From: Perkinsus olseni
Lineage: Eukaryota
Direction of reading: 5' to 3'
Length of the DNA: 58,532 nt
Assembly (NCBI GenBank): GCA_013115125.1
Contig: JABANN010000165.1
Location: 1 to 58,532, forward strand
In this document: positions 4,399 to 51,455 of the stretch, in pieces
Layout: each line of letters starts with the position of its first letter
Position numbering within the stretch: position 1 is the first letter of the stretch
The notes under the pieces: model-generated
Told to the model about the DNA's origin: nothing
The model's database searches: none
What the model saw: only the letters and a program-made list of their open reading frames with translations
Position numbers and translations under genes: made by a program

Positions 4399-6190
4399 TC
4401 AACCAAGATGGTTCACATTTACATTCATCGGCCGACGGTCGCTCTTCAAGTAGTCGTTGATGCTGGGTATACGACTGAAGTATCGGTGGAATTCAACCCT
4501 GAAAGGAACCCAACAACTCAGTTCACAACGGCGGGGCTCCCAAGAGACTTACAACTCGGGATACCACTTGTCGAAGTTTCGGGACTGGTCAAGCGTCTTC
4601 CGCAAGTGTAAATCAACAACATCGAAGAGCTGAACATGACCAATGTTGAGGCAGCTCTCATAATCGGCAAAATTCCGCAGAAATAATTGGTAAATGAAAA
4701 ACATGTGGGCACCTGAAAAGATTCCTTTTGACTTTGCACGCATGCACAAACGAAGCTGTGATCACCTTTGTTATCGCCAGATCTACTGCTAGGGTTGATG
4801 TGCCTTCTCTCGTACGCAGCGACCGCCTCCGATGAGAACTGACCAATGTAAGCTAAATTATAGTATCTGAAAAAGAATACGCCTGTCCCGGATGATGCAG
4901 CTCAATGCCCAATCTTGCAATCTTGCAGTCTTGCAATGCTTCCAGATGCACACCTTGCTACTGTTGATCTCATATGCATGGCCTTAGTCTGCCTAAAATG
5001 CTCCCTACAGAGTCTGCATACACGACGTGTATTACACGTTCTGATGGTACACTATCCCTAGGAACCAAAAAAACTGTGAATGATATAATATCTATCACAG
5101 CTTATTCGTTGAAATATCATTGATACTTATACTGGTTGGGCAATGCGCAACAAGGTTGAAGTTTCCGACGGTGATTTCAAATTCAACAACTGTCCAGCCA
5201 CCCGGACTCACTCAAGTCGCATTGATTCGAGGCCGCTGAGCATCTCATCGATCGCTGCAAGCTGCGCAGGGCTTCCACAATACATATTGTTCATCCGCCC
5301 AAGGTACCTGAACAGCACCATCGAACGCGCTTCTCGCGCACGCTGTAGTCGTCTGTCCTCAGTTCTGACCTTGGAAAGCGACATAGGGCGTCGAGAGGCC
5401 GCGTGCTCACTTGGCGCGAATGAGGGCTGCTAGCTAATGAAGCTTATCGCTCTTTCTCATCTACTGCGCACGACGTCACGCTGTCTCCATCTCAACGATT
5501 CCACCCACGCGCATGACGAGATGCACACTCCTGCCCGAGACGTCCTTACCGTAGTATGCCGTCCATCTGCGCGACTGTATTGCCCTTGTGAACGAGAAGC
5601 GGTACTTGACCGAAGGGAGAGTCGGCCATACCAGCGTGGCCTTTCATATCTTGGTAATTCACGTCCACCTGATGAGAAGGAACTAGCCACCCGAGACTCC
5701 CGGATAAACGAGGGGATTTGCTCTTGTAGTTCAACCTACGGTCTCCCACCAACCCCCTAGATCGACCCATCAACGTCACACTGACTGAAGATACGCGTCG
5801 ACAACTCACCGGCATACACGGAGGGCCTTTCGGCGAAATTTATTTTATTCAACGGAACTTGGCTGCTTCTCAGCCAGTCAGCTCACCTCGGCGTAAGGAA
5901 GGCGGTTTAGCTCAAGCATCAGGCGGACAGGCTCCCCTCGTCCGCGCATCGGGAAGTACTTCAGCGAATACTCGACCGGACTATCACTGCTTGCCGGATC
6001 CTCCATCAAACAATTTATGTACAACTGATGAAGTGAAACGGTTGATCGATTTGTGAAAATATCTTTTTCATAACTTCCGACCTTCGCTGGGTTGAAATAT
6101 TTCCCCTCCTCCAATCCGCTACTCATCGGTAAGAGTGCAAATAACCTCGATCTCTCATCATACTTCCAGTCAGCAAAGAATGCTTGTTTA
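4399..6190 (-). CDS. Glutathione S-transferase (sigma/pi-like), multi-exon, with an N-terminal extension that may start at 6482 (hydrophobic signal/anchor)
   Basis: Spliced exons give YSLKYFPMRGRGEPVRLMLELNRLPYAE|VDVNYQDMKGHAGMADSPFGQVPLLVHKGNTVAQMDGILR|YLGRMNNMY...IDEMLSGLESMRLE|YYNLAY...|AHMFF...VQLFDVVDLHLR...YPEL|VEFHRYFSRIPSINDYLKSDRRPMNVNVNHLG*. This contains GST N-domain (Y, RGRGE, PFGQVP) and C-domain motifs. Stop at 4399-4401. Confidence 0.9.
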
Positions 6191-6576
6191 CGCTAGACAA
6201 ACCGCTTCTTCGTTCATGCGTTAAGTTTCCGATGACGCTCTACGAAGCAGCTGTATGAGACTTTTTCAACCGACCATCACAATGTGATAAAAGACTGCTC
6301 GTTTCTGTGAGCGAAAAATCTGCGTGAAGTTGTTGCCAGGAACTCATAACGCAACCCATGTGTAAAGAAACCGATTCCGTCTGGCCGCCTGCCGTTGGAG
6401 ACCGACTTGTCACAGTAAGGACACATAAAAGGATGCCAAAATACAAAACAAGCAGACAGGAGAATCTTATGTTCACTTTCATTCATACGTGAGTTCACTT
6501 CCCTCCGACACAGCAGAGCAACAATGTAACGATGCACGAAAGAGCAGCACAATTATTCAAAGATTTACTCGTCAAT

Positions 6577-9030
6577 CTACGGACGTTCTCTTCCGCGACT
6601 TCTTCTTGCCTTCTTTTCCTGCACGGGCATTTCATTAGGCAGACCGGACGCAGGAGGAGGGCTTGCTTTCCACACAGTAAACCAATCGACGTCCTTGGCG
6701 GGCGGCAAAGGCATTGACGTGCCCTGAGAGAGAAGAAAACGAGTTCCAGCACGATACATTGTCACTTGGGGATTCTGTTGGGATTGTTTCACTTTCAGTA
6801 CTCTACTCACAACGTACCCACTTCTGAAAAGATTTCGCTCAGTTTTCTCGACCAGCACGCTCATCATGAGCAACCTCAAGATACTCGGGTTCTCGAAAAA
6901 TGTCGAACCATGTCAAATGCAAGTAAAAAGATACTAGACTAGAATTATCGGCACCGAAACTCACCGGGCGCGTGCTCTGATGCCCTCCAGGTATCCGATT
7001 GAGCGAGAACATGACGTGAAGAAGAGCTGGATAGACATCTACAACGTATTGGTATATTTTATAGAAGGGAAATATAATACTTGCTGCGAACCAATCTGAG
7101 AAAAAATCATAACGGCCATTCGAAAGGTCCTCGGTTCGATCCCCGGCGAGGGCTTCTTACTCCATTGCCGACGGACATCTCGTCGGTTTCGTAACGTGAT
7201 TGCCATGAGGGCCACCGAGATACCATGAAAGACTACAAAGTATATGCCAAAATATACACCAATAAGGGCCGGCTGACGAACGAATATTGACACCAGCAGA
7301 AATGGTCTGAAGGGAACCGTGCTCAACGCTCATCCCCGAAGTCCCTGGTTCTATTCCCCCACCTTAATATCATCACAATAGTCGGCACGACGTCAGCAAC
7401 GAAGGACCAAATACGGCCGACCAAGGCTTCTCGAGAACAGCAGCCTTTCGCTCGGATTGTCGGGACAAACGCAACCACGAACATCCGCAGCCGAAGATAC
7501 CATCGACCGCACTCCGAAGAAAAATGGCTACTCCCCGTATCAGTGCGGATCTGAGGAAGGACTACTCGCGTGAAAGCTCAGCAAGGCCGACCCGCGCACC
7601 TGGCTGCCGCCCATTGAGGTTTCGAAGTCATGCCTCAGATACTGCTCCATCATTAACGACGGCTGTAGGAACCCAGGGGAGTCCGTATCCTGACACCTAT
7701 GCATCGTCACGCGCCGCGAAATTATCTCAACTCACGTTAACTCCCACGAAGCCACCTAGGGTCTTATGAAGGGCAGCCCTATCCCACAGCGACACCGCCT
7801 TCCGAGGAGTTACAACGCATGACCCTCCCAGCTTCTCTTGCGCGAAGGACATTCTGAGAATCGATCAACCGGGCGTGCGCTTTGTACGCCAACCTTCGAA
7901 GCCCACGTACATAGCCCTTTGCTTGACCATGTAGTCATGCAGTGTGACTGAAGGCATGCTGTTGACGCCGCGCACTGTGGGTATGTACCACACCACCTTC
8001 GTGCCGTGCCGCCGATAGTCCTACGGCAATACAAACTGCTCATCACTAGCATGAATCATCATGCGTTAACAGGAGGCCAGGAAATTCGAAATTTCTGGCG
8101 GAATTCCGCGAAATTCTGTGAAATTTTGTGATTTTTTTTTCACAGTTCTTATCGGAGCTATTGAAGTGTTCTATGGACCAATCTTCGCTCCACTGTACTA
8201 AAATGATTCATCACTATCCGGAGTTAGAATAATATGTTCCTCTAATAAGTACCTCTGTTTCGAACTATTGCTTTTTGAATTGTTGAAGAGTTTTTATCAT
8301 TGTTTACGGAATGACCTAACCGCCTGACTCGACAGGATGAGCTCACTAACCTGCGTGTTGAGGTCCAAAGCCACAGGCAACATGAAATCATCGTTGGAAT
8401 CAGCGTCAGTGATAAGCATCGCATACCGGAATCTGGAGTAGGGTACGAGGGGTACATAATCGATCACGTGATCGATTGTTACGCAGAGTTCCGGTTCTCT
8501 TGCGGATTGGCCCATCGCAGGACCGACGGAATCCAAGATTTGTTTGCCCAGTAGATCGCCATGGCTTTGTTGTCCTCGGGAAGATACGCATAGTTCACAT
8601 CCGGAGAAACGGAGTCCTGAAGCGTTGAGAAATTGCAAGATGGGATAAGGTCGCAAGATGCTCACTTGAATCATCTTGCAGCAATCATCTGCTGGTGCTA
8701 AATCTTTCCCGACTTCAACCACAAAAATGGGACTACAGCCATGGACTTTAGGGGGAAGTAATGTAGTGCATCTGCACGCATGCACAAAAGATACCGACGC
8801 ACAGCGAAGAATCTCGATATCTTCTGACCTTCGGAGTATCTTTCTCACTCGCCCACGTTTAACTGGGTCAGTACAACAACCGCTGCGCAGCGCCACGATA
8901 ACACAAACGTCGGTGACGGCCTCCTCATTTTGATCGACCTCATCACCAATCACGCCGGTCACAGCGTTGCCACTTTCAGACACACTGCGTCCTCCCCGAC
9001 CTTTCTTTGACGCCGGTAGTGGCGGCCACC
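6577..9030 (-). CDS. GT2-family membrane glycosyltransferase-like protein, paralog 1 (catalytic and C-terminal TM region; N-terminal exons probably extend to about 13 kb)
   Basis: Exon motifs PIFVVEVGKDLAPADDCCKMIQ, VSPDVNYAYLPEDNKAMAIYWANKSWIP, FRYAMLITDAD, KVVWYIP, AVSLWDRAAL, RPFLLVSIFVRQP...LRNRRDVR and PPAKDVDWFTVW are collinear with paralogs 2 and 3. The family assignment rests on my recall of protist/fungal GT2 motifs. Confidence 0.65.
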
Positions 9031-20023: not shown

Positions 20024-20400
20024 CTCACCGCAAACAGCTCCAGTGTCAAGACTGTAATCAGTAATTTCTTTCATTTCCGTTTGGCTGACGGCCTGGGTCG
20101 GGTCGAATTGGAACCAGAGGCGACATCGGCTGCCCTCGATAGTGTCATGCGTACCCGTCACATCCCAGGCTGCGAACACCTAAAAATTTCGGGAAAAAAC
20201 TTGAAAATTTTCCCCAATTTCCGCCGAAAATATCTGTGTCTCATGAAAGTGATGAAATTTTGCCGGAATCTTCACTGTTATCGGTTCAGTGGTGATCACG
20301 GAAAAAAAGAGAAAGTAAAAAATTAGAGGAAGAGAAAAGGCGAAAAAAGGATATCTTTCGACCGTCACGGCCCAGGTTGTGAGCAGTGCTCACTGAGCAC

Positions 20401-31002: not shown

Positions 31003-31146
31003 ATATCGAGTTGATATTATCAACCGAAGAGGGATTGTCAATAAGTTATTGACAATAACGATTCTCATTCTAGCAGTTGCAGTTGTTACACTGCCGATGA
31101 TACGAGCTCTAGTAGAGCTGTTCTACATAAGCCTTATGTCATAAGG
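31003..31146. repeat. Cluster of four 22-nt inverted-triplication scars (putative hAT excision footprints)
   Basis: 31038-31059 t-caataa-g-ttattg-a-caataa-c and 31125-31146 a-cataag-c-cttatg-t-cataag-g are perfect. 31003-31024 and 31105-31126 each have one mismatch. Confidence 0.75.
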
Positions 31147-31689: not shown

Positions 31690-31873
31690 GTAGAAGATAC
31701 ACTATGACGATGGTCGGCAGTTGTGGTGGTAGGCATAGCCGGAGTCCTCATATTGCCGGTAGAAGATGCACTATGACGATGGTCGGCAGTTGTGGTGGTA
31801 GGCATAGCCGGAGTCCTCATATTGCCGGTAGAAGGTGCACTATGACGATGGTCGGCAGTTGTGGTGGTAGGCA
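31690..31873. repeat. 69-bp tandem repeat (about 2.6 copies), with a further partial copy at 33010-33061
   Basis: CACTATGACGATGGTCGGCAGTTGTGGTGGTAGGCA... recurs at 31700, 31769 and 31838. Confidence 0.9.
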
Positions 31874-33105
31874 GGGTTTTTCCTTCCCGAGCACTATTAT
31901 TTCTTTCCAATTCTTTCTTCCCGGAAAGAAAGGAAAGAAACAATGTTCGGTTTCTTCCTGGCATCATTGTGCAATTCTTTCCGAGGGGTTTAATGCGATG
32001 GTCTAGCGGTAAACTTCGCTGTTAAGATCCTGATAGTCGGGGGTTCTACCCTAGCGAGTGTCATTTCTGTGCAAAAATGTGTTGTAGCTACCAAATTGGC
32101 ACCGAGTAATCAACAATTTGTTGACAAAGTCATATCGACTTATCAGATGAGTCTTATCCTGCTGGAAATGCGGATTTTCTACTGAGGCATACGTGATACT
32201 CGCATAATGCGAGTCGCATTCAATACAATTCAAGCGTAGATTGTCAGGTTAGGTAATGAACTTATCTTCGAGCCCTAGGCGGCCTGCTGCCGCTACGGCG
32301 TGGCCGCAGGCTATGAGCACGAGGAATTCCTTCCCAGTGACTGTGAACCAAATGACAGGACTGATTATTAATTATTAATTATTAATTACTAATTAAATTT
32401 TCTTGAATCTAGCTGTCACCGCATCACACTATGGCGAACACACGTGTTGATATCCGGAGTTGAGTGACTCAACGACTGGGAATGTATTACGTTCGCTACC
32501 AGACGATCAGATCGTCACGATCTATTGAATAGGCTCCTCGGCTAGCGGCCGCCGCTAAGCGGCGCCACTCCCATGCCGAGGCTCGACTGGCCAATGCGTT
32601 GTCTGGTACTCCAAGGGCAGCTGCGGCGAGCACTACCTGCTCGGTGTACTCATTCCAGACATTAGTCACTTCTGTCGATCGAGATGGAGCCATAGAATTT
32701 CTACGATAGAAATGAATTAATCCAGATAATCAGGAGTCCTGAGTGATTATTCAGGTGAGTCACCCGGGGTGACTATTCACTCGCTTCCTGAGTCAGGAAG
32801 TGGTCAGTACTCCGCCGCTTTGAGAGCGCGATAGTTCACGATATCAAACCGTCGAGAATGACTGTAATATGGCGGAGCTGCTCAGCCTGGGCCGAGCGAA
32901 TGGGCATTCTTTCCACTCTTATTATTTCTTTCCCATTTCTTTCCGGAAAGAAATGGAAAGAAATGGGTAGGAAGAAACTATCGCTTTGTTTCCGGGAAAG
33001 AAAGAACCCTGGTGGTAGGCATAGCCGAAGTCCTCATATTGCCGGTAGAAGGTGCACTATGTCCCTAAACCGCAAGCGGCGGTTTAGGGAGCTCATCCGT
33101 CTACA

Positions 33106-34188
33106 CTACGGGTACACATCAAGTAGTCTTTCACAGAATTGTACTACCGTCTGCAAAGTGTCAGCTATGTCTTCGCCCTGCCCCGATTCCAGCTTCCTCA
33201 GTGCTATCAGGACCGGCTCAGCGCCTTCATTTTCATCCTTCTCGAGGACCACCGTCGTGGCGAGAACTTCCTCGCCTTTATGATACGTTTTCCATGCGTC
33301 AAACTGCATCTGAAAAGAGCTGTTCTGTACTCGATAGCTCACATGAAATGAACCCCAGGATGAAATCCTCACCTGCAGCGGTCGGTTTTGGCGTTTCAAG
33401 CGGCTTTTTACTTCCTCCTTAACTTTTGAGTACCTCTCCTTCACCGCGGTTGACACCGCCTTCGCACTCGGAAGGGAGCGATCTGCGTCAAATGGCCTCC
33501 CGTTGCGAGCGCCGAGGTCCGTCGCCAACTGTATAAGCTTGCGGAAGGCCACAGATTCGGTCACTGTCAAGGGCAGAGCTTGCGCGACTATAAGGTCCAC
33601 ACACGCCTCGAGAAGACGACCCCGTTGGTCCCCGGCCAATGGAGTCGGATCTTTAATATAATGCAATACAGACGGAGTATCCTTTCGTTTCCCCGAGCAC
33701 GCTTTAAGATGACGGGTGAGGGTACTAGTGTTACCCTTCTTGCACTTGAATATGGTGCGGCATAAGCTGCACACAGCAAAGTCCTTGCAAACGACACGAG
33801 AATCTTTCACGCGGATCTTCATGAAGGCCGTTGTCGACCAGACGTCTGAGCGGGCACTAGAATTCTTGGGTAGGAAAGGCTCGAATATACGCTCATCCAG
33901 CTTCTCCGTGGGCTTGGGTTCCGGAAGAGAGGAATGAGTACCCGAGGCGCAGTCATCGACCTTGTCTCCTTCCGCACGCGTCCCCTGTTCCTCATTGTTG
34001 GGTGCTACGAACACCTTCTTTCTCTTTGTCGGAGGAGAACCCGTGAGGAAGCCCTTTTGTTTCGCATCACCCTTCTCGCCCTCCAACTCCAGGCGCAAGG
34101 CTCGAGCAGCGATATCAGCTGCTGTTTCAGAGATGATGGGCACCTCGTCTACCACTAGATGAGCAGCTGACGATGAAGATGATGCCAT
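33106..34188 (-). pseudogene. hAT-superfamily transposase, C-terminally truncated fragment
   Basis: BED zinc finger (SDVW...CSLC...GNTSTLTRHLKAC), Hermes-type DNA-binding/dimerisation region (LPLTVTESVAFRKLI...LPSAKAVS) and first catalytic Asp motif (QFDAWKT). An in-frame 63-nt GT-AG intron lies at 33310-33372. The ORF stops long before the remaining catalytic residues. Confidence 0.85.
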
Positions 34189-34198
34189 AGATAAACAT

Positions 34199-34970
34199 CT
34201 AGCTAACATCTATATCCCAATCCTCCGCAAGGTCAACCAACAGGGACAGTAACCGGCCTCTAACTGGAGAATGTGGATGTGTAGGCGGTAGATCATCGGA
34301 GCAACCTCCGGCTATAGTGAGTATCGCCGACCTTCCCTCTTCCATCGCAGATTGTACATCCACTATCGAAAGAGGGTCTTCAGCCGTCAACAGAGAATCG
34401 ATTACACCAGGATGGCGCAGAAGAATACGTTCAAACTCCACCCGTAACGCTTTGAAACGTACAATGCCCTGGGGGAGGAAAAGAGACGAATAATGAGGGT
34501 TCCTGAGGCCCCCAAGATAACCATCACGTAGAACAGGAGAAGCCTGGCTAGGGGAACTCGCAAGACCAGACGTAGAAGCACAAGTAGAGGTAGTACAGGA
34601 GGGCAGGAGGGCCACAGGATCATGCTTTCATGAGGATGACTGGTTCCGACTTGGCCCTTTGCCAGCCGAAGGTGACACGGGCGCAGAAGGGCCACCCGCC
34701 AGTTCACCTCGCGTCTGACCACTTTGGTTGGCCTCACGGCGGGGCCTCTTACAGTCCCGATTACCCCGCGGCATTGGATGCGCCGTGCGGCAATGGAGGC
34801 AGACATGCCTACGCCCCATAGGACACGGCTCGTCTCCATTCGCGCCACCACAGCGACCATTCTGGTAGGAGAAGCAGATCTCGTTCCCGCGGTGGGCAGC
34901 CTTGCCACGGCCTCCTTTGTCCTTGTTATCAGTCTTAGCTTGGTTCTGATCAGCGCCAGCAGACCGTAGA
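34199..34970 (-). mobile_element. Fragment of a DIRS/Ngaro-like (tyrosine-recombinase) retrotransposon: gag zinc finger and start of pol
   Basis: CFSYQNGRC...CPMGRRHVCLHCRTAHP...C zinc-finger array, followed in another frame by GGLRNP...SPVRGRLLSLLVDLAEDWD, a pre-RT segment I recall from alveolate DIRS-like elements. The RT itself is absent. Confidence 0.6.
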
Positions 34971-34986
34971 CGAAAAATTTTCGCAG

Positions 34987-35257: not shown

Positions 35258-36574
35258 GTCGGAATTTCACCCTAAATAACAGTACCATTCCTTTTGCTAC
35301 TCCCAACCGGTTCCGGTGGTTCCTGATAAGAGGAAGATGGTGGCGCCGTGAGAGAGCAGCCATCGTCCTCAGTTGATGTCGCGGACGGCTGGCGGTCCGC
35401 CAAGACACTCGAAAGCGGCGGGGAGTCGATACCCGATTTACTGGGCTGAATTTATAATGTGTGAATAACAACAACTACTACTCATCATACCGCTCCTTCC
35501 ACAACTCCTGGCCGAGAATCCACGACGGAAGAATGCTGCTATATCCTCTGAGGCCTTCACTACCCTATTCACTGGAATTGAGAAACTCGACTGAGCACCT
35601 TCGTCAAGTCCTCACAGACAGACTTCCACCAAAACTAGACGCTCATGTCGTTGATCCTTCGATAAGAAGTTACCGCACGCCACGAAATTGCCGTACCATC
35701 ACCACCGGCCCTCCCAGGCTTGTACGAGCTACTGAACGGAATCAAAGTGCAATGGCCGATAAAAATATCCCCCCCCGGCTTCGAGACGGCGACGAACACT
35801 CAACTGTGAGCCCTGAGACGTGACGACGCGAGGAATAATTTGAAACTGTCGGTAAATATCTGAATCGTCAGTCAGACCGCACGAAAACCGAGTAAACCTG
35901 GCAAGCTGCCTTGGGGTCAGCTTGCCCTTGGATGAGAGCTTGGTCTTGGGTAACTTCCTGGCCTTGGTAGGCAGCCACCACTTGGATAAAAGTTCGGGTT
36001 TCTAGTTGCCCTGTCGGTTTTCGGGTGGGGTTTCGGGTTTCCCTTTCTCCGCACTCACCCGCAGTCATTTGTTTTTTTCTCAAGGCTGGCGGTTGAAGTT
36101 CGACTTGCAGTTGGGGTTTAACTCATAGTTGGTGTTCCTCTCGGGGTTCAGTTTTACAGTAAAACTTTTACTTGGGGGAAAAATTCAGTTAGCACTCACT
36201 TTGTAAGATCCACTTCAAAAAAGTCACTTCCTGCGTTACGATAGATTGAAGCCCGACAGAACCCGAACCCGAACTCTTCAAACTTTGAGTTGAAAGTTTG
36301 AAGTTCAAACTGCCTTGGACGAAGCTGCTCTTCTGTACAACAAGTGCAGTTTTCGTACAATCTTACTCACGATTCAGATATTTACTGATACTTTCAGTCA
36401 GAGCCGACGCGACGGGCGTCAGAAAATTCTCGCGCGCCACGAAATTATCACGCCCCAACGGGGGAAAGTTTTCCCGGAAAACCATATTTCTAAAGAAAGC
36501 TGCCATTTTCTAAAGAAGTTTCTCGCTCGCCCCCTCGCTTAGATTTTCGCCTCCTTCCTCGTTTTGCCTTGTGC

Positions 36575-36747: not shown

Positions 36748-39700
36748 ATGGTCCCTCATACTCGTCATCGCCCCTCCCGCCGGCATCGCAAGCGCCCGCA
36801 TCGATTTACCGTGGTATCCTACAACATCAACGGATTATTCGGCAGCAAGTTGGAGCTGGCCCGTTACCTGTCCCTTGCCAAGCCCGGCTTGGCAAGCCGC
36901 ATGTGGTCTGCCTTCAGGAGACATTCCACACCGAAAGCGCCCACCTACGCTTCCCGGGTTATCACGTCGATCATCTGCTTTCGGCATCGATTCCGGGAAC
37001 ATCTCAGGGGTCTCGCCGTGGTCGTCGCAGCGGTGGTCTGGTCACACTAATCCGCGACGATCTTACCTACCACCATTTGTATACCATTACTTATGCTGAT
37101 TCACACGATTTATTCTGTATACTTGCCACAGTTGTTCACGATAAAACCCAACACCCTCCATTACCGTTGTCGATTATTAATTGCTATTTTCGCCCGTCTG
37201 TTAGAATTCCAGAGGACCCTCTCCCGCATATTCCCACACAGCACTCTATCATTCTGGGAGACTTCAATGGGCATCACCCAGCTTGGGGGACTCAGATCCC
37301 TCATGCGACAGACCAGCGCGGAACTATGCTCTACCATTGGGTCCACTCACACAACTACAAGCTACTTCATCATGTTCAAGAACCACCAACTTACATGGGG
37401 TACAATGGAACTATGTCATCGATAGACGTGATGGGGGTCACTAAAGATATTGCTCCTGCAGCCCATAAGTTCATCCTCACAAATGCTCTCGCTGGCTCCG
37501 ACCACCTCCCCCTTCAGCTCACACTTGGTGTCATCCCCCACTTCACCAAGCAGTCATGTCGATCCGCCAAACGGCGCACGTGGAACTTTAAGACTGTGGA
37601 TTGGACCGCCTTTCGCTCAGTCCTGGATTCGCACATTGCTTCGATTGATTGGTCGTCTTCAGTTCATGTAATCCATTCTCAGATATCCAGTGCTTTCGCC
37701 GCAGCAGCCTCACACTTTATTCACCGTGGTCGTCTACACCTGTACAAGCCGTTTTGGACCCCCTCTCTGAACAAGCTCCGGCTAGAGAAGAATGCAGTCC
37801 GACGGGCCCTATATCGCCGTGCTGCCGCCTTCTTACCCCATAGTATTCTGCAGGATTATACTGTACTCTATCAGTAGGAGGTATAAGGCTGCTATACGAA
37901 CAGCTCAACGACAACATTGGGAGAAATTTACTTCGACTCTGGATTTCGCCACGAAAAAGGACTGGAAGGTAGATCGAGCTATGGCCTTAGGAGTGGGGCA
38001 AACGACCACGTCGACGACAGTCATCGACAATGCCCGGGGGGCAGCTGCGGCGAACTTGTATTCACTTTACTTAAGTCGAGATATTTATCGATCACGTTTG
38101 AGTACTGCATCGACTCATCATTGGCAGCGTCAAGGCAATCTTCTACTTCGTCAGCGTCGCTCTGGAACCTACGTTGAGACCTATCCGCGGGCCCCTTTCA
38201 CGTGGTTGGAATTTTCAGCAGTATTATACAAAGCGAAAAAAACCTCAGCACCTGGACCTGACAACATCCATCCAAAGTTTATTGTTCATGCTTCAGACGT
38301 GGCGTTGAGGGCTATTCTGCGCCTGGTGAACTTGACTTATACCACGTCTGAAATTCCCCGCCAGTGGCGTTCAGCTAAAATTATAGTACTGAAGAAAAAC
38401 CCTAGGTCACACGACTCCACTTGTATAAATTTTCGGCCAATCTCTTTGACTAGTATAGTAGCTCGACTGGCGGAGGCTATGGTGCTCAATCGAGTACAGC
38501 ATGAGCTCTTATCCACGGCCAACCCACAGCCCCTCCACCCTCACCAATTCGGCTTCCAACGATCACGAGGGGTTGAGGAGGAGGTAGCCTATGTAAGCTC
38601 TTCGATCAAATCCTCTCTCCACTCTCAGCATAAAATAGTGGGTCTTCTAAGTTTGGATTTGCGAAAAGCATATGATACCACGAATTTGTCCGTCTTACGT
38701 AGTCGCCTCCACACGGCTCTCGCAACGCAACTTATCCCATGGATTTGTGCGTTTCTCAGCGGCAGAAACTTCATGTGGACATCAATGAGGAAAGATCAGA
38801 GTGGCGTAAAGAAGCTCAAGGTCTTCCTCAAGAGGCAGTGCTAGCGCCGGTGCTCTGGGCAATATTCATAAACCCCCTTTTACAACTCCTAGACAGATTC
38901 TGCACTGGAGCAAGTCCGGCATTAACGGGCTTTGCTGCATACGCAGATGATGTGGTCCTTTGGGCTTCCGGATCATCTCAATTCGAAGTAGATTGTAAAC
39001 TCCAAATGGTCTTAAATCAGGTCCAGGCGTGGGTAGAATAGGTAGGGATGGACTTAGCAGAAGATAAGACTCGTCTCATCTACTTTACAAAAACTAAGCG
39101 TAGACAAATTCGGCATAACCAAATCATACTGAAAGGCTATCATCTTCAACCAGTTGATCAAGTCACCATACTGGGGGTTATCTTCGACTCTACCTTATCT
39201 TGGGGCCCACAAATTGAGAAGATCCGGAAAAATGTGAAACATCGGGCGGAAACCATATTTCTACTACTTCAAACTCCTACCAAAATTCACAAAAAGCTTT
39301 ACAAGCAATATGTAAAATATAACTTTACAATGGGTAGCTCGGCATGGGCCTTCGGGGTGACGCAAGAGAGGTGGAAGTTAATAGAAGGATGTTATTCCTG
39401 TGCTATTAAGTCTCTCTTAGGCTGTCCTATATACGCCTCAAAACGTTTGAGTTTGCGGTTAGCAGACGAGCCACCCTTGACCTTGCTCATCTATTCCTAC
39501 TTGAGTCGATTATTTCATAAGTTGGCTCGCCTGCATCATTCACCATTTGCGGTCTTGACTGCTGCCACTTTACCGACAGCTACTGGTACAGCGGTCATAT
39601 GGTACTCCGAGACCCACTCAATCCCAGTACTCCGTCTACTACGTTCCAGTGCCCAACTGGCGGCTACGGTCTGGTCACCCCTTTACCATCCCTCTTCAAG

Positions 39701-41026: not shown

Positions 41027-44000
41027 GCCTTGTGCTGCGGCCTTGCCTTGTGTTACGGCTTTGCCTTGGGTAACAGCCTTCACCCGTGATTTCGGCTCTC
41101 ACCCGAGTTGGGGCTTTCACTTGCAATCGACGGTTTTTTTGTTTACACCTGGATAACAGCTTTGCCTTGTCTTATGGCTTTGCCTTGGGTAACAGCCTTC
41201 ACCCGTGATTTTAACCGTCTCCAGCTTAGATTTTAACCCTCTCCAGCTTAGATTTTAACCCTCTCCAGCTTAGATTTTATCCGCTTAGTTTTTCGCCGCT
41301 TAGATTTTCACCGTCTACCGTAGACGGTCTACGGCTTGAAAGTTTCAAGTTGAAACGGTTACGGCTTTCTTTAGTTTTTGGTATTCTCGGGCGTGCGCTA
41401 TTCTTCTTTGGTTTTTCCCCTCCTCGCTTAGATTTTCACCTCCTACCCCCCAATGGGGCGGCCCCATTCATCGACCGACCGGGTCGTTAACAAACTTGTT
41501 TATCGATAGAAGCTCTTCTTATGCATCGTGCTGTACATGGTTCAATCGCCACGTCCCCCAGCTCAGAGAGCTCCGCCGACTGTCATGCCAATTCTACACC
41601 ATAGTGGTCTTCAAAACTCTCCTGCGTCAGCCGCTGCGGTCTTCCGAAGACCGTCTTCGCAATGCAAGAACTGACTAGCTTACCCGCTTTGACCCTCTGG
41701 TCGGACTTTTTCGCTACCCTTCGGAGTGTATGATGCTATTGGGACGCACCAGGGAGCTTCCTAGGTGAACGCTACTTCAAACTCAATCATACTGAGGAGT
41801 AGGACTCCTACTGTAGGAGGGGTTTTCGGGTCCAAAAATTTGTAATTTTCCGAATCGGACAGTGTCATTTTCCTGGGTACGGGTCGAAGGACTCTCTATG
41901 TATCGCTGATCCTGGGGTGAGGTGAGCTGAACGAGGGGCCTGCAGGGGAGGAGAGATCAGGATACGCTACGAGGGTCTCAACCTGCTGGTGACGACCGCA
42001 GACCGCGGCCAGATGCCGAGGATTTCGCCTGAGGGGCACGAAAGCATTCGATTTTTGAATCGAGATGAGCCCTGGGAATTGTAATGCTTATGTAGCTGAT
42101 CCTGTCCTGCTTCGACAAGAAGGTACGCTGAGGCTAAGTGGCGGATGATAAGAAGACAGCAGATGAAAGGTTGGATTCCAGATGGCAAAACCCGGGTGCT
42201 GTGTTCTCAATCAGCCAGTCTTTCAACAGAAACCCCCAGCGCGTTTCTAGCTCGACAGAAAATTTAACGTAGTAGCAGCGGGAAAGAGAGTCGGAAAAGT
42301 CGAATGTCTTTCACGGGAGAGTCTTTCGAGAACGGGCGGCAATTGTGTCTCACGAGCGTTTGCAGAGGAACGCAAATTTTGGTGAAAGTATGGATTTTGA
42401 AAATTGTAGATGACCTGGAAGCGAACCGAGGTGGAGGAAAACTAATAGAAGTAAAAATAGGAGGGATAGTAGAAGTAAAGTAGAGAATAGAAATTGACAA
42501 GAAACGAAAAAAAGTAGAACTGGATAAAAAACTGTTTAGTAATAGACATCGACGGGAGATGAACTTCGATTGGAAAATTAAAGTCTTCTCTGCGAGTGCG
42601 TCCGTCAAGGATGGGCGAGAATTGGGACTTACAAATGTCTGTGCGCGAAATTCGGCCAACCCGGAATCCCAAGGCGAGTAAGGTGAAAGTAAAAAAATAG
42701 AAGGTGACGTTGAGGCTGAGTAAAGTTGAATTAATTTCAAGTAACGCTCCAGTAGAGGACATTGACTTGTGTGATTGTGTGATTCGTGTTGTGCGCTTTT
42801 TTCAGCAGCAGCAGCAGCCGTCGCCTCCTCAGCGATTTTATTTTCTTCTTGTTTCGCCTATATTACGCATACACTATACAATTGCCACCCAGGGATGCCT
42901 GCGAAGACTTTGAAAAATCCGAGCGTCACTCACCGACCACCTCCCCCTGCGCGTGATGGTGATGATGATGGTGACACTCCCTCGCTTAATGAGGGCCTCG
43001 CGAGTACCGGCATAGTCTTCCATCGTCATCAGCTCAAGCGAATGGCGTCCGCTCTGCCCAGTCCTGGAGGTAGTAACCCTGGGCAGGTTCGATTCTAGGG
43101 TGCGGCGGCATTGTTTTCTTTTCAGCGCTGAAGAATCTCGCTTCCGCTAATACGGTCCTCCCTGCGGATGATGAGCCTCACGAAAGCGCCACGCCGAGAG
43201 TCCTTCGACCCGAGCCCAAGAAAATCACTGACGAGACCTCGCCCGATTCGGGGCAATCCTATTCGAAAGAATTCGACGAGGAAAATTACAAATTGTTGGA
43301 CTCGAAAGAGTACAGCGACTTCCAGTATTACCTGGACATCGGTCGAAGGTCTACCACCACTAGTGGCCCGGGAGAAGGCGCACTTTTCTTATTCGAAGAT
43401 CAAGGTTGTTACGAAGAGGTGATAGACGGGGCAAAGGGTGGGGATCTTTCGATCGGCGATGCATTCGTTAAGCATAATTAAGAGCCCTCAGATTGAGTTA
43501 GTGCTTTCAATAGCGTTCTTTTCCGAAGGTTGTCGGTAATCAACGGAAATTCGCGTGGAAAATGCAAACTGGTGGCGGAAAGCTAGTTTGAGTGCGCTTA
43601 TCGAGCGCCGCCGAACACGCACTCTCCGCTCACTACTTGATGAGAACACAGCCCCTCTGTGAGCAACTGGGCTTCTTCCTCTTCTTCTTCTTCGCACCAT
43701 CTGGCGACAGTGCCGTTTGCCGCGGGCCAGAGAATAATAGTTCGCTAAAGAGAGGTGGAACTCGAGTGTAGTCCGCGATGGGCCGTGAACTCATAACCAT
43801 CGGTTAAGGCCCGTTACGAAGCACAGCGGACCGTCATAAAGTATGCTTGGTTTGCTCGGTGATGCGTCACAACTTATGATTATTTTTTCATCCTTATAAA
43901 TTATAATTATATCATAAGTTTAGATTATTTTCAGTGAAAATTTTTCACTATAAGTTATGATGAGTTCTACGTCTAGCGGGACAATACTCAGGCATTAGCG

Positions 44001-44443
44001 GTAGAACGAAATGGAGATGAGCCACTCCAAATTGGAGTCTCCAATGCCAGAGTCACGTACAGCGTATTTTACATACACTGCGTGACGGCGTGGCGAACCA
44101 CACAGTCGGGAACTCCTAGGCGACAGACCTCGCTGGAGCTATGTTGTCTGCCGAAGGTCTTCCCACGAGGTTCGAAAGAAGAAGAAACGACAATCGTCCT
44201 CGTTCTTCGTGTTTAGCGGAAGAATTCTCGTCACTCAAGACGAAGACTCAGCAAGTTTCGTCACTCACAACGTTAGAATAAATAGATGCATGATAGATGG
44301 ATCAAGATAATAGATAGATCGTCAATAGATACAGCACTTTGAAAAGCGAAATGGGCTTGGCTCAGGTCACGTCACGTGACTATCGTCCGTCACAATGAGA
44401 CACGCACGTGGGCCACGTGACGATGATATTGCTGATATCGTGA

Positions 44444-44500: not shown

Positions 44501-44551
44501 CTCACTGAGTTAGTAACGCTCGACTACACTCTGACTTTTCTCAATATGCAT

Positions 44552-46615
44552 TCAACTGTTCTGGCCTCGCGGCGAGGCCCTCGCCTGGTCGAAAAAGTCC
44601 AATGCTTCAGTGGGATTCCAAAGAGGCTCGGCGGGGGAAGGATCGAAACCATTCCACGCGGGAGCCCCAAGCGACACATCACCATCCACGCCGGTGTTTG
44701 CATGGGCCATCGAAGTAGAGGACGGAATGTCAGTGTTACCAAGCTCACCGTTCCCGCCAATAGAGAAGCCCAGAGGGGCACCATTACCATTTCCAGGGCT
44801 CTGTTGTGGGCCCGGACCGAGGCTCTTGTCCAGGTCTGGGATGCTGCTCGGTCTCATAGGATAACTTACCTTTTTGATAACCAATTCGACCTCCATCGAC
44901 AGTCGGTAGCAAACCTCGATATCATCCCCATAGATGCTCCAGCCAAGGACCTTGGAGAACCGTATAAAAGCCGCAGTGACCGCTCCACGATTAGAGGGAT
45001 TGATGGTATCGAACATGTAGCATCCGGTGAGAATTTTAACGACCATTGCGAGGGGGCCGACCACGAATGGGCGCTCCTTGCCCGGAGGGAAGAAACAGAA
45101 GGTACGCGAAGAATCTGCACCTATCTTCATTGTAACCTTCACGAAACCAAGAAAAGGAGAGACGCTCTCGTAGACAGTTGCGAGGGGCTGGCCCGTCGGA
45201 GGCAGACCGGTAGGAGTCAGTGGTACAGGCGTGGGTGGCAACCGCTTGCGAGGCCGGCCGGTAGATGCCTTTGCTGCTCGCTTCTTACGTTTCTTTCCAG
45301 ACTGCTCAGCACTCTTGCTGATAGAAAGACTGGAAGGCCTTAAAATCGCCTCAACACCAAAGCTGTCCCTCTTTGAACCGGGCATGTCATTGCCTCTCCA
45401 GAACAAATCGTGGGCATTGGTATTAGCATCTGGAGGCTTCGTCGGCTTCTCCGCTTTCTCCGGAATGGATTTTAAGGTCATTCTATATCTCTCTTTTCCG
45501 ATGGTAAATTCTGCTTCCATGGGAGTGGGGAAACAGACGGAATTATCCTCGGCTGAGATCTGCCTGAAACCCTTCCCGGCTAGCGATGACGATAAGAGTT
45601 CAAAATACAACTTCGCCTTTTGGTACCCAATGGCGTCAATTGTGTCGTACACCAGGCACCCGGTGGAGGGATGAATGACCATTCTGTACGGGCCGAGCGT
45701 CCACAGGTTTTGATTCCCATTCAGAAGGAACTTGAAGGAGCAGAACATCCCCGCTTGAATGACCATCATGACCCTCGCGAAGCCATCAATGGGCTCAGCA
45801 TTCTCGTAAATGGCAAGGCTTGGGATTCCGCCTGAACCCACTCTCCCCTCGGTCCGCACCACGGCTGCTTGTTGCCGTTGGTGGCTCATCGGAGATGACT
45901 CTCGCGCGGTAAAGCCTTCCACAACCTCGGGCGTCGGGTGGTCATGTGGGCTCCCGATGCTCGTGGCGGTCGAGCTAGCTTCTGTCGCTCCGAGATGATA
46001 AGAATCATGATCGGCATCATCGACGCTGTCCATCTCTCCCACAACTGATACGTCATCGACCTTGAGTAGCTCATATGGCTGACCGTGGAGCACGAGATGA
46101 ACAATACTATCAGAGACCGGACAGACTCTGACATCGCGCCAGTAGAGTCGAATGGAGGAAGTGCTATTGAGTCTCCTCTCAACCTCTCTGAAGCTCTTCT
46201 CAAGAATTCGCCTCTCGAGCAGATTTTCCCCAGAATACATCAAACAACCAGCCCCGTCCGGCTCCAACTCGTGCGGGCCAACGGGAATCGCTGTTGTCAC
46301 GCCCAGCAGCAAGAAGTGGAGGGTCGTCGTCATATTCGTGTAGAGCTCCATGACTATCCCCGCGAAGTCGCCCACAGAAGCGAAGCTCCCATATTTTCCC
46401 GTCGCGACCAGAGTAGAGTCAGGGCCGTTGACGCTCCCGTTGGCACGAAGACCTCCAAGGACAACGAGCTGCAGGAGTCTTCGAGGCAGTCCGTAGAGCA
46501 GTAACAGAAACGTGGAATTTGTTGATTGGCGTAATGTCTCTCGTGACGGGAGGCAAAGGAGACGGGAGTCCCGTCTCCTTTGCCTCCCACGGGCGCGCGC
46601 TGCTGTCGTCACCAA
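44552..46615 (-). CDS. Intronless hypothetical protein with three tandem copies of a roughly 110-aa two-Cys domain; possibly secreted; true start uncertain
   Basis: 687-codon open frame. Repeated cores IPVGPHELEPDGAGCLMY...DVRVCP, WTLGPYRMVIHPSTGCLVY...DNSVCF and FVVGPLAMVVKILTGCYMF...DIEVCY are separated by low-complexity linkers. A hydrophobic stretch lies near the N-terminus. Confidence 0.7.
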   Translation of the reverse strand: MVTTAARARGRQRRRDSRLLCLPSRETLRQSTNSTFLLLLYGLPRRLLQLVVLGGLRANGSVNGPDSTLVATGKYGSFASVGDFAGIVMELYTNMTTTLHFLLLGVTTAIPVGPHELEPDGAGCLMYSGENLLERRILEKSFREVERRLNSTSSIRLYWRDVRVCPVSDSIVHLVLHGQPYELLKVDDVSVVGEMDSVDDADHDSYHLGATEASSTATSIGSPHDHPTPEVVEGFTARESSPMSHQRQQAAVVRTEGRVGSGGIPSLAIYENAEPIDGFARVMMVIQAGMFCSFKFLLNGNQNLWTLGPYRMVIHPSTGCLVYDTIDAIGYQKAKLYFELLSSSLAGKGFRQISAEDNSVCFPTPMEAEFTIGKERYRMTLKSIPEKAEKPTKPPDANTNAHDLFWRGNDMPGSKRDSFGVEAILRPSSLSISKSAEQSGKKRKKRAAKASTGRPRKRLPPTPVPLTPTGLPPTGQPLATVYESVSPFLGFVKVTMKIGADSSRTFCFFPPGKERPFVVGPLAMVVKILTGCYMFDTINPSNRGAVTAAFIRFSKVLGWSIYGDDIEVCYRLSMEVELVIKKVSYPMRPSSIPDLDKSLGPGPQQSPGNGNGAPLGFSIGGNGELGNTDIPSSTSMAHANTGVDGDVSLGAPAWNGFDPSPAEPLWNPTEALDFFDQARASPRGQNS

Positions 46616-49600
46616 GGGGCCTCACACTCCGGCACTCCATCGATTGACGGCAGTTGACACTGTAATTCGTCACCTTCATACGTCCAAGAAGCTGTCTCAT
46701 GAATGGTAAGTGGTAACTCACCACTGGTGAGCAATCGAACTCACAAGTCGAGGTCACCTGGGCCTGGAGTTTTGTGCGTGCTTTTGCACGAACGTCACGC
46801 TACGAGTTGAGATCTAATCTCACTTATGGTGGTCTGAAGTCCACAATCTCACGGGGACATGAAGCCACCCTGACACGCGGGATCGACAGCAGTTAGATAC
46901 TGGCCACTATGCTGCTTCAATCGCTCCGCCGTTCTCACGTCGTGGTGTCCTAATTTTTTGCATATTGGCCCGACTCGTTGAGCCTCACTTTTGCTGCCTG
47001 TCTAAGTGCAAGCTGTATGATGCGACTTTACCGTACCGTGGCCGCAGTGACACTGACAGGGTGGCAATTCACAATGTGAAGCTACATGCGTCATTTGCGC
47101 CCACGTTCCGCTACGAGTTAGAATCTTGTGTCATCTATACGACGACGTAATCTCATGACTACGCATCAAGATCGACTGGTCTCCGATCACCACAGCGTTG
47201 AAGAGGTGCGTACGTAGTGAAGAATGGGGTTAAGACTTTACCGTTGAGTTTTTGGAAGCTATCCAATGCATTTGGATGCTCTTTTATCGTGTTGCGAAAC
47301 GCTATTGTGATATTTTTGAGGCGAAAGAAAATAATTTTTTCATCCATTTAATGCGCCCTGGTAAATGATGATGAATTTCGTCATCACTTCGCGGCGGAAG
47401 CGTTTCTTCCGCGGCTAACTTGGCGCGGCTAACTTGCTGTACATCTCGAAGTGATCTAATATCGGGAATCCCGATTCGGGATATGTGCCATTTTTGCTTC
47501 GTGAAGAGCTCACTTAGCACGGGCCCTCACGGGAATCACGAATCTGTCATTACGTGTGTCCACTACGTCTTCTGAAGTTTCTATTCCCACCTGCCTCGTT
47601 ATCATTCCCTCTGTCTCCCCTTTCAGGTTGTAATCTGCACGATACCGGTGAGCGTCGTGGCCGGCGCCCCTAGGTCCTCCGCGTCTCTTCATTCCACATT
47701 TTATACAGTCAAATTTAGCGGCGAAGTTGCCGCTCCCGGCTTCATCGAATTCGGTCAGGCCGAACTTCTTCCGACTGTCAAACTTGCGGAGTGAGTTGGC
47801 GTGGGGGCTTCGATTTTTTTTCTCGGACTCTCTGTTCTTTCGAACCACGCACATATCGCCTTAAGAATTCGGCGTGCTCGATTCAGTAGTTCATTCAAGT
47901 CGCGGACGAAAACAACGATGTTTGTAGGACTGTATTCGTTAGTACTGGTCCACTAGAGGTGATACTATCACCGTGATAGCTTTCCTCTAAAATACAGCGC
48001 TGCGGTACTCCCGGTCGCCTGATGTTATCCGCCGTTTTGGCCCGGTAGAATGTGATATCATTCCGCTGTGTATGCCTTCAACCAGCTTTTATTTTCAGTT
48101 GCTTATCACCGGCCATTCAGTGTGCCTTCCCAATAGTGGAGGAGAGAACTACGCGGTTTCTGGGCATCCTCGGCTTGAATAAAGGGAAAAGGTGACTCAC
48201 ACCATCACCCAACTGCAGCACCCTCGTCAGCTCGAAGTGGCATAGTTTATTCTCCTCTTTTTTCAGGGAACCGTCCCTCACTTTCCTCAGTATGTGTCAA
48301 TCATTTTCAATTCCACCAATGCTGAACGTTGACGGTGTAATGTACCCCACCGAGCGCTCCGAGACGGGTCTCATTCAAATGCGTAAGAAATCAAGATTTC
48401 GCGCGCCACGAAATTAAGTAACTCAAACTCGGTCGAAAACTGAATAATTATTCATGATTTCGTTGACTGGGTCCCATGTAGAAGAACTTTCCAAGGTTAT
48501 TTTTGCATCTTGCATAAGTACCAAAACTTCGCCGAATCGCACGCGCTTGGTCGTTGCTCAGTACCTCCGTGGGACGATCCCCGCCAGGCCAGCGTCTCTG
48601 TTTTCCGGGTTTCGTCCAAGGAAGCGATGTTTTGTGGCGCAGTACGGAGTTGCCGGAAATTTTCCCCGCTCCTGGGTGAGCTGCTATTGGAATTTCGTGG
48701 CGCAGTGACGATCATGTCAGGTCGGCTCCCGTCCGGGTTTATACCTATCGAGCCCCAGCGTATAACACTGTGGGCATTTATCGGTTCTAGAATGTCTTCC
48801 ACCGCCAAAAATGTTGGCTCGGCTGTCCCGACGCCGTCGCCGGTCCCCCCGGTTGAATCAACTGATAGCGGACCTCGAGAGAGTCTCGCGGTAAGCGACG
48901 CATTAGAAACCGTTTCTTGATCTATTTTGGTAATTATTAGTAATAGCAATTTCAATCCTCGGCCAGGTGTCGGTGAGAGCCGCCGCATCGATCGCTCCGG
49001 TCACAGGCGAGATAGAAATCTACGAGATTGGTGGTGGGGACGAGGTTTCCTCCCAGATGGCAGCCAATGAAGTGACGAGTTGTCGATGGTGCGGTACGAT
49101 GACAATGTTTTTCAGGCAACTACTGTGCTCTTGTCGGGGGTCCGATATCGTTTAGAGTGATGATGACAATGATAATAATAATAATAATAATAATGATTAA
49201 CATTAATTAACAGTAGAATAGTGGATTTAGGAAAGCGCGATTTGTCCAGGTTTATTATTACACCTATCGACTCTAGCGTTTAGACCTCGACTTTTGTACA
49301 CCACTGAAGGCGATGACGACGACCAGAATCGTCAGGATTCATTTCAATACTTTACAATATCATTAATATTATTAGTAATATATTGAACAAGAAGAAGGCG
49401 ATTATTAGTAATAGATTGTTGTATTTGCGTCGCGCGCCGCAAAATGCCACGTATGTTGCCCGCACAGCTGCCGATAATAATTAGGCTGAATCTCATCATT
49501 CATCACTGTGGTTACTCTGGCCTCCTCCTCCTACTCTTACTCGTCGGTAATGTTACTTCGTATTTCATCATCGGTATTATGTGTCGATGATGATGATGAT

Positions 49601-49993: not shown

Positions 49994-51030
49994 TCATGAA
50001 TCGGTGGGAGCGGCGGCCCTCATCATGTGCGGCAACACTCCATCGTTGTTTTTAACGCTTTCATCCGCCCCGTTAGCAATGAGGAACTCAGCCAGGGAGA
50101 TGTGGTTGAACCTGACGACCTCGTCCAAATCCACGATCATCGTAACTTCTTACTGATAGCAGACGTGCAAGGCAGTGTTGCCCTTCACGTTCTTAGCGTC
50201 GATATTGACCCCACAGCCGAGGAGGTACTTCGCTATCCTTCTGTTGTTGTTCTGGCATGCTATCATCAGCAGCGTGTTGCTCTGTTGTGCCTCGACCTCT
50301 GATTGGGGAAATGCTCACGCGCCCAATCCGAATGAATTTTAGAGCGTAGTTGGGCTAAGTGGAGCAACGTCTACCACTCATGTCAACGGAACCCGCGGGA
50401 CGTTGAGATCAGAATTGGGCAGGATCGCCCGGTGAAATTGTCGTAGCATCTTATCGTTCCAATCACAAGTCTCGAGAGATGCGAGAATCTCTTCCATGCT
50501 CTGTTTGAGTAGACGGCGGATGAGCTTTGCACGCATGCACAAACCAGCAGCATCAGGCACACTTTCGATGAGACTTCTGTCCTCCTCAAGCAGGGACTCC
50601 ACGGCCTCGTAACGATTATGACGAACCTGACGCAGGACCGACTACCGAAGGCATCTAACAATGACATATTCGGGAAGAGGGCCACGCCTCGCCAGTACCA
50701 TAACTTTCGGTACACTTAAAATACGTCGACTGGAGAGTATCATTCTCTCACAAGAGAGAAAATGATGAAGTCACATCTCTAATGCATCGAAGGGCGACGA
50801 GAAGCGCCTTCGGATCGACACCCCCCTACACAAGAGATGAGGACCTCCACGCCCTTCTTCTCCTCGGTATCATCTTGCAGATCTTCCAGTGCCCCTACCC
50901 TTCCTACCGCCTGGCCAAGAGCTTCCGTTGAAGATGAACAAAAGCCCTTACCTGTGAGTCGGCATCATCATCCTCTTCTTCTGTCTTCTGAACACTGAGA
51001 CGAGAGTCCATGATGAGGGAGGGGTCGGGC
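49994..51030 (-). CDS. Ankyrin-repeat protein, 3' exons (the gene probably extends upstream past 52.7 kb)
   Basis: Spliced VEVLISC|VRHNRYEAVESLLEEDRSLIE|...SNTLLMIACQNNNRRIAKYLLGCGVNIDAKNVKGNTALHVCYQ|FNHISLAEFLIANGADESVKNNDG...TDS*. GNTALH ankyrin consensus; stop at 49994-49996. Confidence 0.85.
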
Positions 51031-51196
51031 TGGACGAGCTGCCCCCGGTTGGGACGAATGTGACGGTCCAAGTCCGGGCGCGAGTAAGCTGCCGTTGGTA
51101 ACCTTATGTATGCATCTCCAACCCCTGCACAGCGTTCCTAGTCGTATCATGCCTCCACCGTTGTGATTGCTAATTATGCGCCGATCGTCTTATGGG

Positions 51197-51455
51197 CAGT
51201 CCTTTAAATAAATTCGGGATATCGTGTTTCTCTCGCCGCTAGGGCCAACTGGGAAAAGTTACCAAACGAAATGTTTAGGGATACCTTCTAGTACCTTACT
51301 GAGTATAACCCCGATTCGGGGTCCCCGAAGTTTTAGACCACAACTCGTAATGAGTTATGTACTCATTAAGTCATGTGCTCAGTAGGGCACTTCGTTTCGT
51401 AACTCGTCCCTAGCGGCGACAAAAACACGATATTCCAAATTTATTCGGAGGACTG
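51197..51455. mobile_element. Tc1/mariner-like MITE, about 260 bp
   Basis: Imperfect TIRs CAGTCCTTTAAATAAATTCGGGATATCGTG / CACGATATTCCAAATTTATTCGGAGGACTG. TA is present on the right flank but not the left. Homologous to 3153-3294. Confidence 0.78.

Follow-up and report, generated by a model that had tools for sequence, protein, structure and literature searches.

The window analysed here, the whole 58,532-nucleotide stretch of Perkinsus olseni contig JABANN010000165.1 (assembly GCA_013115125.1, forward strand), is eukaryotic DNA with few recognizable genes, in which a 22-base pattern of fixed shape recurs and parts of transposons of the hAT superfamily are found. The pattern, which we call a scar, consists of the first seven bases of an 8-mer, W, followed by the reverse complement of W and by the last seven bases of W (W[1-7] + revcomp(W) + W[2-8]), a net addition of 14 bases to a single copy of the word. 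An initial annotation of the window had listed 11 perfect cases and four with one mismatch; the former all match the formula exactly at their coordinates, and the latter each carry exactly one mismatch. A scan of the window with the full pattern confirms the observation and brings the number of perfect scars to 21, about twice that first noted. The same scan returns seven one-mismatch matches, six after an AT-rich low-complexity run at 32375 is dropped, and four two-mismatch matches, two of which are low complexity. The total used below is 29 scars, 21 perfect and eight slightly decayed (six with one mismatch and two with two), at a density of roughly one per 2–3 kb. The scars, none of which has a strand, are given here with those of the initial annotation marked as previously listed and those added by the present scan as newly found where this applies:

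5018..5039: perfect scar, W = ATACACGT; previously listed
20379..20400: perfect scar, W = GTGAGCAC; previously listed
24753..24774: perfect scar, W = CCTCAAAA; newly found
30646..30667: perfect scar, W = ATCGCAAT; newly found; inside a zero-gap contig piece of run X4
31003..31024: one-mismatch scar; previously listed; no 14-base gap listed here in run X7 (weak)
31038..31059: perfect scar, polymorphic, W = TCAATAAC; previously listed; absent in X7, kept in X4
31105..31126: one-mismatch scar; previously listed; overlaps scar 31125 by two bases
31125..31146: perfect scar, polymorphic, W = ACATAAGG; previously listed; absent in X7
32199..32220: perfect scar; newly found; within a 1140-bp element
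32502..32523: perfect scar; newly found; within the 1140-bp element
32543..32564: perfect scar; newly found; within the 1140-bp element
32691..32712: two-mismatch scar
32752..32773: one-mismatch scar; previously listed
36151..36172: perfect scar; newly found
36289..36310: two-mismatch scar
36461..36482: one-mismatch scar; newly found
36878..36899: perfect scar; previously listed; within a long interspersed nuclear element (LINE) at 36552–41296; in zero-gap pieces of X4, X10 and X11
41312..41333: perfect scar; previously listed; in a decayed 22-nucleotide tandem array
41335..41356: perfect scar; newly found; one base from scar 41312
41446..41467: one-mismatch scar; newly found
41638..41659: perfect scar; newly found
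41798..41819: perfect scar; previously listed
43927..43948: perfect scar; newly found
44024..44045: perfect scar; previously listed
44564..44585: perfect scar; newly found
46710..46731: one-mismatch scar; previously listed
47461..47482: perfect scar; previously listed
47958..47979: perfect scar; previously listed
51308..51329: perfect scar; previously listed

Ten first-order Markov shuffles of the window yield, when summed, no perfect and no one-mismatch matches, two two-mismatch matches and 21 three-mismatch matches; the chance expectation of about 2e-4 per window quoted at the outset is of the right order of magnitude. The window itself contains 13 three-mismatch matches, and about four of these (11269, 17590, 32138 and 47228), together with one small-deletion case near 32110, look like older scars. 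No scar is present in a negative control of 13 unrelated metagenome loci (98.6 kb together), which were single chance matches of a 19-base dispersed motif, 12 of them in GC-rich contigs (58–71% G+C). The words of the 21 perfect scars are all distinct, no two scars sharing an 8-mer, as the initial annotation had stated.

The restriction of the pattern to a single word length, expected from the outset as a sharp peak at 8, is likewise observed directly. With one base trimmed from each side, 21 perfect matches occur at k = 8 and none at any length from 9 to 30, and shorter words give 15 matches at k = 4 (about 14 by chance), none at k = 5, two at k = 6 (one of low complexity) and none at k = 7, so that the signal at k = 8 stands alone within k = 4–30 in this window. 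Trims of zero or two bases in place of one give only 0–2 matches each for k = 6–10, and the sole k = 8 match with a trim of two bases on one side and one on the other (2/1) is the one-mismatch scar at 36461.

The window contains 61 perfect palindromes with 7-base arms and a one-base centre versus 3.2 in shuffles, 19-fold over chance, and 42 of the 61 are the two overlapping palindromes that each perfect scar contains. Palindromes without a centre base (4 versus 3.8 in shuffles) and with a two-base centre (6 versus 4.6) are at the chance level, and the excess is therefore specific to odd, one-base centres. In each of the 21 perfect scars, one centre is the complement of the last base of W (W8) and the other that of the first (W1); these are the bases that would border an element having W as its target duplication. 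The earlier statement that the palindromes are centred on the complement of the element-adjacent base thus holds for 21 of 21 perfect scars and matches the footprints of the Ac/Ds transposons, which are described as palindromic additions centred on that complement (PMC5873905).

Outside the scars, 11 one-base-centred palindromes with arms of at least seven bases are found, versus about 3 by chance. Two of them are long and perfect, the palindrome at 44444–44500 with 28-base arms and that at 46548–46588 with 20-base arms, each around a single base, and these may be one-sided hairpin joints left by excision. Near the long palindromes, 7-base-arm palindromes around CACGTG occur at 44373 and 44412. 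Short footprints of the plant type, in which both duplication copies are kept and the two middle bases are complemented, were searched for among 6-mer repeats spaced by eight bases, and none was found. Removal of the scars in silico lengthened no open reading frame (ORF), and there is therefore no sign of recent gene breakage by scars here.

Eleven public sequencing runs contain the stretch, and four of them (X4, X7, X10 and X11) were aligned as contigs to 30600–50599, a region that includes 17 of the perfect scars; X10 and X11 cover it partially, and their uncovered parts are uninformative. Contig pieces of X4, which derives from another sample and another study, span at least 13 of these 17 scars with zero gaps and zero differences, the remaining four lying outside the X4 pieces listed. 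This recurrence of unchanged scars in contigs of a different study answers the concern, raised with the initial annotation, that the pattern might be an assembly artefact. X7 represents a diverged strain, with 0.32 of words in common and most pieces 90–99% alike. Two gaps of exactly 14 bases occur in one X7 contig, the first at 31039 (depth 130.3 of 167.6), where X4 retains the bases, and the second at 31126 (depth 118.5 of 118.5). Because scars 31038 and 31125 are reduced to a single 8-mer when 14 bases are removed, these X7 sequences are empty alleles, which are thus observed at a minimum of two of the 17 perfect scars in the compared region among the X7 indels listed (85 further rows exist beyond those listed). 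None of the other X7 indels in the same contig, over 30755–31367, falls at the one-mismatch scars 31003 and 31105; there is a weak hint that decayed scars are older and common to the strains and that perfect scars are young.

The haplotype comparison proposed in the initial annotation was borne out for two of its three allele states, empty alleles being present in X7 (at 31039 and 31126) and scarred alleles in X4, whereas no hAT-filled allele is present among the rows listed. A further observation comes from scars 41312 and 41335, which lie in the decayed end of a 22-nucleotide tandem array, where deleting 14 bases from each restores the register of the units. Each scar is a 14-base gain in sequence that was already there. 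The opposite polarity may be represented at 33708–34153, within a transposase ORF, where a contig piece of X7 is 14 letters longer than the window (gaps 14); these extra letters may be a scar that is present in X7 and absent in the window.

Parts of hAT transposons reside in the same half of the window as most of the scars:

31872..33011, plus strand: non-autonomous hAT-like element of 1140 bp with CAGGG...CCCTG ends and scars inside
31864..31871, no strand: left 8-bp target-site duplication GTGGTAGG, flanking the 1140-bp element
33012..33019, no strand: right 8-bp target-site duplication GTGGTAGG, flanking the 1140-bp element
33109..34209, minus strand: truncated hAT transposase ORF of 367 amino acids, N-terminal part, with similarity to protein P0004

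The 1140-bp element interrupts a 69-bp tandem repeat, which resumes beyond it. Its ends are complementary at 17 of 25 terminal positions, and GGAAAGAAA repeats lie subterminally, near both ends; it shows both the 8-bp target duplication and the combination of short terminal inverted repeats with subterminal repeats by which the hAT superfamily is recognized. Its terminus is of the CAG type, which we take to be typical of hAT elements. Among 15463 pairs of 8-bp direct repeats scanned, eight have CAG or TAG ends, and only the pair around 31872–33011 encloses a long inverted repeat. A stricter scan for duplications with inverted ends gave one further, weak candidate with an 8-bp duplication at 53458–56562, in which 11 of the first 12 end bases pair and none beyond; it was not counted. 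The contigs of X4 and X7 join 31973 directly to 32966, a joint that points to a shorter relative of the 1140-bp element elsewhere. Three perfect and two decayed scars lie inside the element, and the presence of scars there and inside the LINE left uncovered by X7 indicates that the process is recent.

Along 83% of its length, the ORF at 33109–34209 matches residues 4–306 of P0004 with 52% identity; P0004 is a 789-residue protein labelled as a hypothetical protein of Perkinsus olseni that carries the hAT dimerisation domain PF05699 (26.2 bits versus a cut-off of 21.4). A zf-BED match in the ORF is weak (19.2 bits, under the cut-off of 20.6). The C-terminal part of the transposase was not found in the window, and because only residues 4–306 of P0004 are matched there, the copy is truncated. 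A scan of metagenomes with the transposase as query returned no relative. Upstream of the ORF, the segment 34975–35274 is built of some 11 repeats of a 15-base unit that includes GGTGTACGAG, and after them comes ...CACCCTA at 35274, which on the minus strand would be a TAGGGTG terminus; the depth over this segment is 15–40 times single copy in both X4 and X7. The segment may comprise the subterminal repeats and the end of an autonomous element. No partner for this terminus was found in the window, and when the putative terminus was used to look for the other end of the element that carries the transposase, it gave 10 matches versus 9.4 expected, which is chance. The hAT origin of the scars that had been proposed is supported by the co-occurrence, in one window, of part of a transposase gene and of an element that has CAGGG...CCCTG ends and an 8-bp duplication.

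The words and positions of the scars carry further information. When each W is counted in both orientations (n = 42), the bases at position 2 are 19 T, 11 G, 9 C and 3 A (p = 0.0066), so that the words are enriched for T at position 2 and for A at position 7; T occurs in 18 cases at position 3 and in only 4 at position 1. The published target preference of the hAT transposon Hermes is nTnnnnAn (PMC10368747). The agreement is suggestive, the bias being weak and the sites few. With respect to distribution, 18 of the 21 perfect scars fall within 30001–58532, the half that contains the hAT parts (p = 0.0007), and the 29 scars include 10 gaps of less than 150 bases, a count that was met in 0 of 20000 simulations. 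Scars adjoin scars, either overlapping or 1–40 bases apart; those at 31105 and 31125 share two bases, and those at 41312 and 41335 are one base apart. Local hopping is a familiar behaviour of hAT elements, and the clustering fits local hopping and hot spots.

Taken together, these data make it likely that every 22-mer marks a donor site left by a single insertion and excision of a hAT-type element and mended by an annealing-based route. In this scheme an element would insert and duplicate its 8-bp target, W, which may be written a-X-b. On excision the transposase would nick one base into each flank, and the freed 3'OH would attack the opposite strand where the element ends, thereby closing the flank into a hairpin tipped by the complement of the element-adjacent base; such nicking and hairpin closure of the flanks is established hAT chemistry. 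Host nucleases would then open both hairpins at least eight bases from the tip, leaving two 3' tails. On the top strand the opened left hairpin would read a-X-b'-X'-a'... and the right one ...b'-X'-a'-X-b, and the eight tip-proximal bases, b'-X'-a' on one tail and their complement on the other, would pair perfectly. Annealing of the tails, trimming of flaps and filling of gaps would give a-X-b'-X'-a'-X-b, with a gain of 14 bases. By this derivation the 8-mer is the longest complementarity between the predicted tails, which would explain why the product is uniform. That the middle eight bases of a scar can be derived from either hairpin tract is the signature expected of joining within shared sequence, but it follows from the model and provides no independent test of it. 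Uniform scars would imply joining driven by annealing, of the microhomology or single-strand-annealing type, and only a small part for direct end joining. The former presence of an element at every scar site is something that we infer, and the repair route is read back from its product alone.

A far wider version of this scheme can be formulated, in which the lineage mends essentially every hAT hairpin break by distal opening and annealing of the inverted duplication, with Ku-type joining absent or shut out; the genome would then be a complete, countable and datable ledger of excisions, scars would be a main source of 14-base indels between strains, and old scars would draw insertions. We regard this version as possible but doubtful. 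A literature search on end-joining genes of Perkinsus returned nothing.

Several points weigh against the excision-and-annealing scheme. The strain comparison was made with contigs and not with raw reads, and among the contig alleles listed for 30600–50599 no scar site holds an inserted element; as no filled allele was seen, no scar is directly tied to a hAT copy. The window contains only one filled site with an 8-bp duplication, and its transposase copy is truncated. The target logo derives from 21 sites and one chosen test. Moreover, a uniform product is unusual for hAT footprints, and the explanation given for it is inferential: Ac/Ds excision in Candida albicans produced 28 kinds of footprint in 128 events, with arms mostly of three bases or fewer (PMC5873905), and excision patterns in rice were complex, 8 of 94 being "perfect" (PMC4423477).

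The alternative closest to the preferred scheme retains the hAT hairpins and changes only the joining, by opening at a fixed distance followed by ligation or by polymerase-theta-like, synthesis-dependent copying of one tail. The final product cannot separate these routes, and the 11 isolated odd palindromes outside the scars (arms of 7–8 bases, except for the two with 20 and 28) probably show that other outcomes and other opening distances occur. Ligation after a fixed cut, however, leaves the loss of exactly one base per duplication copy unexplained unless the 8-base tracts overlap, which amounts to annealing, and the derivation above identifies the 8-mer as the longest complementarity between the tails; we consider a different joining route unlikely. 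An origin from another hairpin-forming superfamily with 8-bp duplications, such as a Mutator-like element, would draw on the precedent of Muta1, which resembles the scars in its flank hairpins and its duplications of 8 or 9 bp (PMC5499845). In the same report, more than 90% of Muta1 excisions in yeast were precise, whereas the present sites are scarred; there is no 9-base class in the window (0 matches at k = 9–11), no Mutator-type Pfam domain was detected among the 158 ORFs scanned (8 + 150), and it is hAT parts with an 8-bp duplication that sit in the window itself. This origin is accordingly judged improbable to a high degree.

Mechanisms that need no transposon are less probable still. Replication template switching and fold-back priming at breaks make short inverted copies, and the local clustering of the scars would suit them. 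Neither has a ruler, yet among the lengths (k = 4–30) and trims tried, scars occur only with 8-base words that lose one base at each end, and even-centred palindromes are only at chance; we hold such an origin to be very improbable. For an artefact of sequencing or assembly, or for a structural motif under selection (a protein-binding cruciform, for example), the regular shape is the only argument. An artefact is hard to reconcile with the same scars in contigs of another study and with the absence of two of them from the diverged strain X7, and a selected motif with words that all differ, with locations in a LINE, a non-autonomous transposon and tandem repeats, and with the lack of any Rfam family match in the window, and these two possibilities are hardly credible. 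Excision of hAT-type elements followed by annealing of the inverted duplications therefore remains the preferred explanation.

Coding joints of V(D)J recombination resemble the scars in that off-centre opening of sealed hairpins adds palindromes (P nucleotides). The V(D)J P tracts measure 1–4 bases, arise from a hairpin without the one-base offset, hence with an even centre, and are joined by classical end joining. The scar tracts, by contrast, measure eight bases, have odd centres and would be joined by annealing. Ds excision has been likened to V(D)J joints, and Ds in Arabidopsis has been interpreted with the same hairpin model (PMC1978519). Ac/Ds in plants, budding yeast and Candida albicans is similar to the scars in that flanks form hairpins, which are opened and often joined at microhomology, and in yeast the arms reach up to 20 bases and microhomology is found at 88–89% of joints (PMC5873905). 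Ac/Ds footprints are mixed, whereas here one product accounts for nearly all recognizable events, and unlike them the scars have 7-base arms on both sides that overlap across the whole inverted duplication, in a natural genome. With mPing the scars share the principle that homology for a uniform repair comes from the target-site duplication; after mPing excision the sequence is restored to its original state, whereas the scars add 14 bases through hairpin-made inverted copies (PMC4561436).

The chemistry of hAT excision and the general type of footprint are thus already known, and what differs here is the single product, the use of the full inverted duplication as the joint, and the density. 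Literature searches, which covered text but not figures or supplements, returned no paper describing scars of this kind, nor any on the excision of transposons in Perkinsus; the 22-base product may have been recorded earlier in yeast assays. Sites from which transposons have been excised are usually invisible or too varied to recognize, and the history of transposition is read from the remaining copies only. A scar of fixed shape lets excisions be counted by a pattern search, ordered by decay and by sharing between strains, and mapped relative to the resident elements as a test of local hopping and of hot spots. Its uniformity also makes the product a natural record of hairpin opening and break joining in a little-studied alveolate lineage. 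As each event adds 14 fold-back bases, it shifts a reading frame and introduces a small hairpin; scars are therefore a class of mutation worth annotating, and they provide presence/absence markers between strains.

The remainder of the window yields little that can be assigned. A Pfam search of eight long ORFs detected only endonuclease and reverse transcriptase domains of a LINE (36903–38844) and the weak BED finger, and among 150 of the 167 ORFs of at least 90 amino acids no family was matched at E <= 0.001; the other 17 lay outside that scan, at least three of them in frames of the scanned long ORFs. Rfam and tRNA scans of the window gave no match. The LINE is

36552–41296: LINE; endonuclease and reverse transcriptase domains, RNase H match weak

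In contigs of X4 and X10, only four other letters separate 36551 from 41297, an arrangement that resembles a copy of the surrounding repeat lacking the LINE, and X7 has zero depth over 37270–39270. No homologue of the C-terminal ORF of the LINE was found by a search.

Two short motifs are dispersed over the window. The first is about 20 bases long and has the 12-mer GCGCCACGAAAT at its core, often with CGTCAC before the 12-mer and T after it; the 12-mer occurs at 29 sites with at most one mismatch between 7711 and 56352 (for example at 12549, 25675, 26065 and 52797), versus 0.27 expected. The flanks of these sites are unrelated, and their strand is distributed in blocks, all plus from 7.7 to 20 kb and all minus from 22.9 to 25.7 kb. 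The motif sometimes lies within tandem units of 31–63 bp, and contig joints of other runs break there. It could serve in regulation or be a very small dispersed repeat; a literature search on it returned nothing. The second dispersed short motif is a doubled 8-mer, AATCTTGC or its complement, found in at least six unrelated contexts (4910, 10234, 14477, 17963, 18854 and 52062).

A contig of X10 of 1903 bases aligns in five pieces, 42831–43067, 43124–43416, 47625–47790, 48720–48889 and 49116–49713, and on the plus strand GT lies at, or at most two bases past, the piece ends checked. With GT at these ends the contig looks like a spliced transcript. No ORF or Pfam family was recognized. Five scars lie within its 4.2-kb gap. 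A 689-amino-acid open frame at 44555–46621 (minus strand) is internally organized in a repeat-like manner, and its end lies just beyond scar 44564; it matches no Pfam family, and an Atlas search gave scores of at most 0.78 and no lead. Over about 26 kb, from 4001 to 30000, the plus strand shows a sustained negative GC skew and a positive AT skew, which ends near 30 kb, where the scar-rich and transposon-rich half of the window starts.

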